From assembly GCF_052425735.1 (NCBI RefSeq), contig NC_135766.1, positions 25,172,001 through 25,236,000 of the forward strand: DNA of 64,000 nucleotides, written 5' to 3'. Within the stretch, counting starts at the first letter, position 1, and each line of letters starts with the position of its first letter. Below, piece after piece: positions 50,050 to 50,340 of this stretch. The stretch is from Oculina patagonica. Taxonomy: Eukaryota. The position numbers and the translations under genes were made by a program. The notes under the pieces are model-generated. The model did not search any database. It was not told the DNA's origin and was given only the letters and a program-made list of their open reading frames with translations.

Positions 50050-50340
50050 GCTCCTTTTATACAACTTTTCCATCCCAGAAGAACTGGGCTCTAGTATTCC
50101 CATTGGTCAATCGAGGTGACCTGATACAGAATGAACCAATGAGATCTCATGATCAATGTCACCCAAGGTGACGGGATTTTCCCCACAAGGGTAAAATCCC
50201 AAGCTGACGGGATTTTCCCCACAAGGGTAAAATCCGCGGGATTTCCCCCCAAGGGAAAAATCCCGACGCACGCGCGTGGAGAATCTTTCTCGGAATTCTC
50301 GGAATTCTAGGAACCCGCGTGTGTTCATTCTCGGAAAAGT
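50050..50340 (-). promoter_or_regulatory. pPolB promoter/enhancer: TATA, CCAAT, kB-like hairpin repeats, four GAS-like sites
   Basis: TATAAAAGG on minus strand at ~50053-50061. GGGATTTTCC at 50173 and 50209, GGGATTTCCC at 50238. TTCNNNGAA at 50287, 50296, 50305 and 50328. Confidence 0.65.

Follow-up and report, generated by a model that had tools for sequence, protein, structure and literature searches.

The DNA polymerase gene of a Maverick element integrated in the genome of the stony coral Oculina patagonica is preceded by a cluster of kB-type and STAT/GAS-type motifs, which may constitute a host NF-kB/STAT-responsive early enhancer that raises transcription of the polymerase under immune or stress signalling. 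This is the explanation that we favour, although we give it a little less than an even chance. The element lies in a 64,000-nt window, that is, the whole stretch of DNA analysed (contig NC_135766.1, positions 25,172,001 to 25,236,000, assembly GCF_052425735.1). Because motifs of both kinds sit together before the gene of the protein-primed family B DNA polymerase (pPolB), and are of types that also occur upstream of the STAT and NF-kB genes of the host, the element is likely switched on with the help of the host's immune or stress signalling. The wider proposition is that coral Mavericks are immune-triggered proviruses, with a tunable NF-kB/STAT enhancer that mimics host immune-gene promoters and turns the polymerase on during the immune or bleaching-stress response, and that this cassette has been traded between Maverick groups that diverged deeply, and between polymerase lineages; we hold it to be doubtful.

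A preliminary description of this DNA had reported three tandem kB units with inverted near-copies, followed by four TTCN3GAA sites, upstream of the minus-strand TATA box of the pPolB gene, and we recovered the same arrangement. Motif matching places the kB-type array at 50169..50264 (plus strand), with its three units at 50173-50200, 50209-50235 and 50238-50264, and the STAT/GAS-type block of four sites at 50287..50336; the sites are situated 111-275 bp upstream of the TATA box. The names kB, GAS, CRE and CCAAT are used here for what we take to be the consensus forms of these motifs. Each unit consists of a left arm GGG-N4/5-CCC (GGGATTT(T)CCC) and an inverted right arm one base longer, the left arms being 11-bp GGG-N5-CCC sites and the right arms 12-bp GGG-N6-CCC near-copies. 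The left arms contain matches to GGGRNWYYCC (GGGATTTTCC at 50173 and 50209, GGGATTTCCC at 50238), and a CRE half-site (TGACG) precedes units 1 and 2, at 50169 and 50205. The GAS sites are TTCTCGGAA, at 50287, 50296 and 50328, and TTCTAGGAA, at 50305. A heat-shock element was rejected for the latter block on spacing, which is N3 here, with GAA and TTC joined without a gap, vs the alternating nGAAn units (TTC-N2-GAA) of that element.

Gene pPolB is on the minus strand, and its main exon (45537..49403) codes for 1288 aa with a match to PF03175 (E 4.7e-48), the closest named protein being 97% identical and from O. patagonica. The second exon has 36 nt (49792..49827), with AG/GT ends, and matches gene model P0001. 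The first coding exon (49904..49999), identified from the sequence, from ORF starts in 30 loci and from gene models P0001 and P0004, has an acidic tract and an NLS-like end and is highly variable among copies. Two contigs of run X1, whose RNA status is guessed, contain the joint 49403-49792 with GT..AG ends; together with the splice signals and the public gene model, this indicates that pPolB is spliced. The second intron includes a piece of a high-copy genomic repeat (49682-49774, depth about 2200 in run X16), and positions 49420-49660 hold a duplicated, decayed copy of the pPolB acceptor and start.

Upstream of exon 1 there are, in this order, a TATA box (TATAAAAG, 50061-50054, minus strand) and two CCAAT-type boxes (50102-50106 and 50136-50140), all evident in the sequence, the CRE half-site and kB array, the GAS block, an AT-rich spacer and a 208-bp tandem repeat (50866-51786). 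The spacer and repeat, which together span 50340..51786, accompany the GAS block and are also found in a second Maverick group; the core promoter exists in three versions, depending on the copy. Four runs were available as contigs, from which start site, strand and level are not readable; contigs from two of them, guessed to be RNA, cover the TATA box and the array unbroken, so that the TATA-linked start is perhaps not the sole start site. A 105-aa ORF across the array (50107-50424) was rejected as a gene, since it is anywhere between 16 and 126 aa long in the 27 copies.

The element is a Maverick, as the preliminary description had supposed, by its polymerase, integrase, terminal inverted repeats (TIRs) with target site duplication (TSD), and capsid, and its length of ca. 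20.5 kb is within the 15-25 kb range of Maverick/Polinton elements. The left TIR (44245..45122) starts with AGTAGT, directly preceded by the 6-bp TSD AGGAGA, and the right TIR (63908..64000) continues past the end of the window. The TIRs are 99.1% identical over 879 bp, and this identity, their AG-rich AGTAGT ends and the flanking AGGAGA duplication indicate a young insertion. An rve-type integrase with a chromo domain is encoded at 54921..56008 (plus strand; PHROG transposase/integrase matches, E 1.6e-11; Chromo), its start codon being out of frame with the remainder of the gene in the window copy. The product of 57520..58923 (plus strand) is likely a double-jelly-roll major capsid protein, with an Atlas score of 0.98 (229/256 features) and PF21738, DJR-like, on 15-24% of cluster members; a PDB sequence search with this protein gave no match. 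The element also codes for a PLA2-like protein and a GRF zinc finger. Neither a packaging ATPase nor an adenain-like protease was matched in it by Pfam or PHROG; a Walker A motif is visible in 59628-60293, and 58926-59495 has a weak match to a viral cysteine protease (E 0.58). An Atlas search with a 257-aa ORF returned nothing usable. A short bidirectional promoter (53350-53547) separates the genes read leftward from those read rightward; it has CCAAT-like motifs, an E-box and two CRE-type sites, and each strand carries a TATA. At 44871-44944, inside the TIR and hence at both ends of the element, ARAGORN identified a gene resembling tRNA-Gln(CTG), to which Rfam gave no score; it could give rise to a Pol III transcript akin to adenovirus VA RNA. 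A tRNA-like stretch was also spotted by eye in metagenome locus L133.

A DNA search of the genome returned 39 matches, and the array is covered in 27 loci, in 21 haplotypes, which contain 82 units (one unit in one locus, two in six, three in 11 and four in nine). Of these 27 copies, 25 have one or more strict kB sites, two or more GAS sites occur in all 30 loci fetched, and an intact pPolB frame of at least 1285 aa lies, by coordinates, behind the array in 19/27. Since the backbone is ca. 97% identical among most copies, their sharing of the array mostly reflects recent descent. Downstream of the array, the copies have one of three core promoters and pPolBs that are 37-97% identical in their N-terminal part, with a capsid protein 99-100% identical in the six other backbones fetched (6/6), which indicates that the polymerase arm has been swapped just downstream of the array. 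In five copies (L007, L009, L010, L013 and L014) an internal deletion has brought the start of pPolB next to the element's right end, and the cluster remains complete.

Three divergent alleles were distinguished, namely the main one, that of L023/L026 (78-81% flank identity) and that of the second Maverick group (80-83%), and the GAS sites are kept in all three. In the L023/L026 allele no unit fits the strict kB consensus, the kB core being one T longer in most units. The second group (L077-L080, L165-L168 and L175) has a C2H2-finger pPolB and a capsid protein only 21% identical to that of the window element, and carries ca. 1.3 kb of GAS block, spacer and 208-bp repeat, with ca. 80% DNA identity, adjoining its own terminus of 111-bp repeats. 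This sharing of the GAS module is best read as a non-coding module exchange between Maverick groups. The kB core GGATTTTCCC is present in three of five second-group loci, and a good kB core is missing in the other two.

The preliminary description had proposed a comparison with shuffled and genomic backgrounds. Dinucleotide shuffles of 50050-50340 gave at least three strict kB sites in 34/5000 cases and four GAS sites in 0/5000, a test that overstates significance because the kB and GAS sites are tandem duplicates (TRF reports periods of 36 and 28 in this stretch). Throughout the genome the triple-kB pattern had 81 matches vs 7 for the reversed control, and 17 of its 27 distinct places belong to the window Maverick family, the other 10 being mostly minisatellites. 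The triple-GAS pattern was not enriched genome-wide, with 59 matches per strand vs 87 for the reversed control. One of the minisatellites, at L169 4120-4560, has a 19-bp unit holding a canonical GGGACTTTCC site, with no long ORF close by.

The array and the block might be a neutral GC-rich minisatellite, in which one chance palindrome and one chance TTCTCGGAA were amplified by slippage in a young element. The lack of triple-GAS enrichment and the plain minisatellite nature of the other triple-kB clusters fit this explanation, as do the freely varying unit number and T-run length and the recent shared ancestor of most copies. It does not account, however, for two independent motif types side by side in a promoter, for the preservation of the GAS arms between alleles whose flanks are 78-83% identical, or for a kB-like palindrome, unrelated in sequence, that accompanies a CRE at the matching position in sister elements; we consider it quite unlikely.

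Folding of the array is far stronger than that of its shuffles (z -4.2 as RNA, -4.9 as DNA), and its inverted units could instead be sites for another protein, either a zinc finger of the element or a host factor recognising GGATTT..CC, or hairpins for single-stranded replication, packaging or an RNA leader, in which case they would resemble kB sites only by coincidence. Consistent with this, GGATTTNNCC in inverted pairs is common to all variants, including poor NF-kB binders, GGGGGAT half-sites also flank both TIRs as inverted pairs, the contigs guessed to be RNA cover the array, and zinc fingers are at hand in the C2H2 fingers of the type-2 polymerase and the GRF finger of the window element. 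The variation among units points the other way. The GGG and CCC of the left arm are invariant in 82/82 units, whereas G/C positions of the right arm are altered in 12/82, by about six events (two-sided p 0.03), so that constraint on the arms is asymmetric. The three interior substitutions are all at the free position 5 of GGGRNWYYCC and all break the hairpin, and there are no compensatory base changes among the 82 units. Variable columns number 3/18 in the GAS arms, 4/9 in the spacers and 198/446 in the flanks (Fisher p 0.027); the flank counts include alignment noise, and these variant statistics are post hoc and based on few events. Alignment of sibling copies, the check by which conservation of hairpin pairing alone would have become apparent, thus showed that the motifs are kept, without compensatory changes. 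Moreover, a 3-bp TTC/GAA stem does not explain the GAS block, gene order is identical in a sister element that lacks the array (L069), and an Rfam scan of 44000-64000 found no match at E 0.5. Unit variants thus weakly favour protein binding over hairpins, and we judge a different binder or a structural role to be unlikely.

With respect to which proteins might bind, the genome encodes both a p50-like NF-kB and a STAT, in line with the statement of the preliminary description that cnidarians have these factors. The STAT gene has exons for the N-terminal, DNA-binding, linker and SH2 regions, and was recovered with the linker profile, searches of the genome with the STAT_bind and STAT_int profiles giving no match. 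The host NF-kB has a Rel domain and a p50-like recognition loop, RFRYPCEGPSHGG, in the Cys form. p50 prefers sites of 11-12 bp. Cnidarian NF-kB is p50-like (PMC5700166), and the Cys form of the loop binds DNA better (PMC2751831).

Binding of anemone NF-kB in vitro was read from supplement 2 of PMC5700166, with PBM z given as Nematostella-Cys/Aiptasia NF-kB; this is a 10-mer array from which the 11- and 12-mers of the units are absent, and it provided 14 rows for 24 queried sequences. Left-arm 10-mers had z of 7.7/5.6 (GGGATTTTCC), 8.0/5.7 (GGATTTTCCC) and 11.4/9.8 (GGGATTTCCC), compared with 12.7/12.0 for the reference probe GGGAATTCCC and -0.2/-0.9 and -0.1/0.0 for the near-misses GGATTTTTCC and CGGATTTTCC (PMC5700166). 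Values were lower for the 12-bp form of L023/L026 (GGGATTTTTC 6.8/5.4, GATTTTTCCC 5.4/3.3) and weak for right arms and type-2 variants (GGGATTTTAC 4.0/4.0, GGATTTTACC 2.0/0.7) (PMC5700166). Left-arm 10-mers are thus moderate to strong binders (z 5.6-11.4, in the array's own flanks) and right arms weak ones (0.7-4.0). Overall, there is good indirect support for the predicted binding of host NF-kB and STAT to the cluster.

The same types of motif occur before the genes of the factors themselves. The 750 bp before the start codon of the host STAT gene contain four TTCYNRGAA sites, two of them identical to those of the element, vs 0.22 expected (Poisson p 8e-5, with the control fixed beforehand). 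Upstream of the host NF-kB gene there are two kB-type sites, GGGAAATTTCCC and GGGAAGTCCC, one of them of the GGG-N6-CCC form, and the GAS site TTCTAGGAA, within 300 bp of each other. These clusters, at L178 7516-8032 for STAT and L176 3630-3935 for NF-kB, suggest possible autoregulation and cross-regulation of the two genes in the coral. Among the matches listed, at least 12 triple-GAS places are outside Mavericks, and the neighbours at the nine fetched include MOV10-N/zinc-finger, lectin-ApoL, BTB and TMEM121 genes, with one cluster in a kinase intron; we take these neighbours as a lead only, because triple GAS is not enriched genome-wide (59 vs 87). Locus L153 has about 20 TTCN3GAA sites in repeated blocks (4260-6310) upstream of an unannotated 301-aa ORF.

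In the mechanism that we propose, coral NF-kB and STAT would presumably occupy, in vivo, the kB array and the GAS block upstream of the pPolB TATA box, and immune or stress signalling would lead to more pPolB transcription, with the factors activating rather than repressing. With more polymerase, replication or transposition would increase. The number of units, from one to four, may change through slippage and unequal exchange, which would tune the dose. Different polymerase arms would be exchanged at the core promoter, and the enhancer would remain linked to the capsid backbone.

The same host factors could also bind with another outcome, the sites setting the cell type or silencing the element, with STAT acting in stem or germ cells, where insertions become inherited, or a p50-like NF-kB homodimer repressing. 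All of the binding evidence fits this equally well; homodimers of p50 are able to act as repressors, and in other animals STAT has a role in germline stem cells. The p50-like nature of cnidarian NF-kB (PMC5700166) agrees with it as well, and so does the clustering of polintovirus expression in the coral Stylophora by colony, not by heat treatment (PMC11131425), which is at the same time evidence against an immune- or stress-responsive enhancer. A second observation against such an enhancer is that knockdown of STAT in Nematostella left cGAMP-induced genes unreduced (PMC8713801). Conversely, anemone NF-kB activates kB reporters (PMC10329013, PMC2751831), STAT, IRF and NF-kB motifs are enriched in promoters of poly(I:C)-induced Nematostella genes (PMC8476169), and host triple-GAS clusters are near MOV10-like and ApoL genes in two of the nine loci fetched. 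Control of cell type or silencing by the bound factors appears to us rather improbable, and activation by immune or stress signalling remains our preferred reading.

Viral use of NF-kB and STAT sites is, as such, already well known. In the HIV-1 LTR and the cytomegalovirus major immediate-early enhancer, tandem kB sites and CRE-like motifs couple a latent virus to immune signalling; the likeness to the Maverick cluster lies in the tandem kB and CRE-like motifs, whereas those are vertebrate retro- and herpesviruses that respond to p65/p50 dimers, and there is no homology. Adenovirus E2 encodes a related protein-primed polymerase, also from a spliced mRNA. As in the Maverick, the adenovirus E2/E3 bidirectional promoter has an NF-kB site, ChIP-bound and TNF-inducible, at replication genes (PMC4728692), but this is one kB site, and the cnidarian element, which is integrated in the germline, has a STAT-type block besides a tandem array of variable length, both of predicted function. 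The ie1 (wsv069) promoter of WSSV is likewise that of an invertebrate DNA virus; it has sites for NF-kB, STAT and AP-1 and is turned on by host immune pathways, although the sites are single and it drives an immediate-early regulator gene of an unrelated, exogenous nimavirus (PMC6683665). Stony-coral Maverick/Polintons, described as adintoviruses or polintoviruses, share with the present element the gene set, TIRs, TSD and PLA2-like virion gene, as well as hallmark-gene expression and the exchange of polymerase and virion modules (PMC11131425, PMC8502044). The word promoter does not occur in the main texts of these two papers, in which neither a kB/STAT enhancer nor enhancer exchange between groups is described (PMC11131425, PMC8502044).

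That the element serves the coral as a virophage-like defence is very improbable. Endogenous virophage mavirus and the Tetraselmis PLVs are integrated, inducible relatives of Polintons that giant viruses trigger in protists, and mavirus uses a giant-virus promoter; nothing in the coral element points to a helper virus, and its promoter is built of ordinary host Pol II motifs (TATA, CCAAT and CRE). In the literature covered, to which subscription journals and bioRxiv supplements did not belong, we found no publication on promoter control of animal Mavericks, and the cluster is a concrete, testable candidate for their trigger, with built-in genomic controls in copies with one to four units and a sister element with none. 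Virions of Mavericks have not been observed in vertebrates (PMC8097293). If the proposed mechanism holds, bleaching and disease could mobilise endogenous coral viruses, given that NF-kB rises under heat stress and infection in cnidarians (PMC13042239), viral use of NF-kB/STAT enhancers would extend to an early-branching animal, and regulatory cassettes would move between Maverick groups.

The cluster is not general to Mavericks, since it was found before none of 36 other pPolB genes whose upstream regions were picked from 111 matches. The array was not recovered beyond this genome in the metagenome and viral contigs searched. The unit pattern had no matches in metagenome contigs, and of the 33 metagenome loci found with the capsid query about four (L121, L133, L136 and L147) reach the comparable position, where they have no array. 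Searches of viral contigs with pPolB and capsid queries found no relatives. A GAS-pair pattern matched 12 viral contigs, which were rejected as unrelated and look like coding sequence of phages or other viruses.

Sister element L069 has the gene order of the window element with the entire module missing, and before its related core promoter there are CRE sites, a GGGGGATACCCCC palindrome and CCAAT boxes. A kB-like palindrome, GGGGATACCC, which is unrelated to the array in sequence, stands beside a full CRE at the matching position in sisters without the array, before pPolB in L069 and L062 and behind the same neighbouring gene in L121 and L147, from other metagenomes; its PBM z is 7.4/8.4 for Nematostella-Cys/Aiptasia NF-kB (PMC5700166). 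A kB-like palindrome with a CRE thus seems to recur in two unrelated sequence forms, and another G-rich binder could explain both. L062 and L121 have the GGGGGATACCCCC cassette too, L147 has a variant of it, and in the window element it adjoins each TIR. In this conserved cassette, ATCCCCC comes after GGGGGATACCCCC, and a CRE or E-box and a TATA-like motif stand next to them; at the TIRs (45333-45360 and 63804-63830) it points into both repeats. One spacing variant of this cassette has 18 exact matches in the genome.
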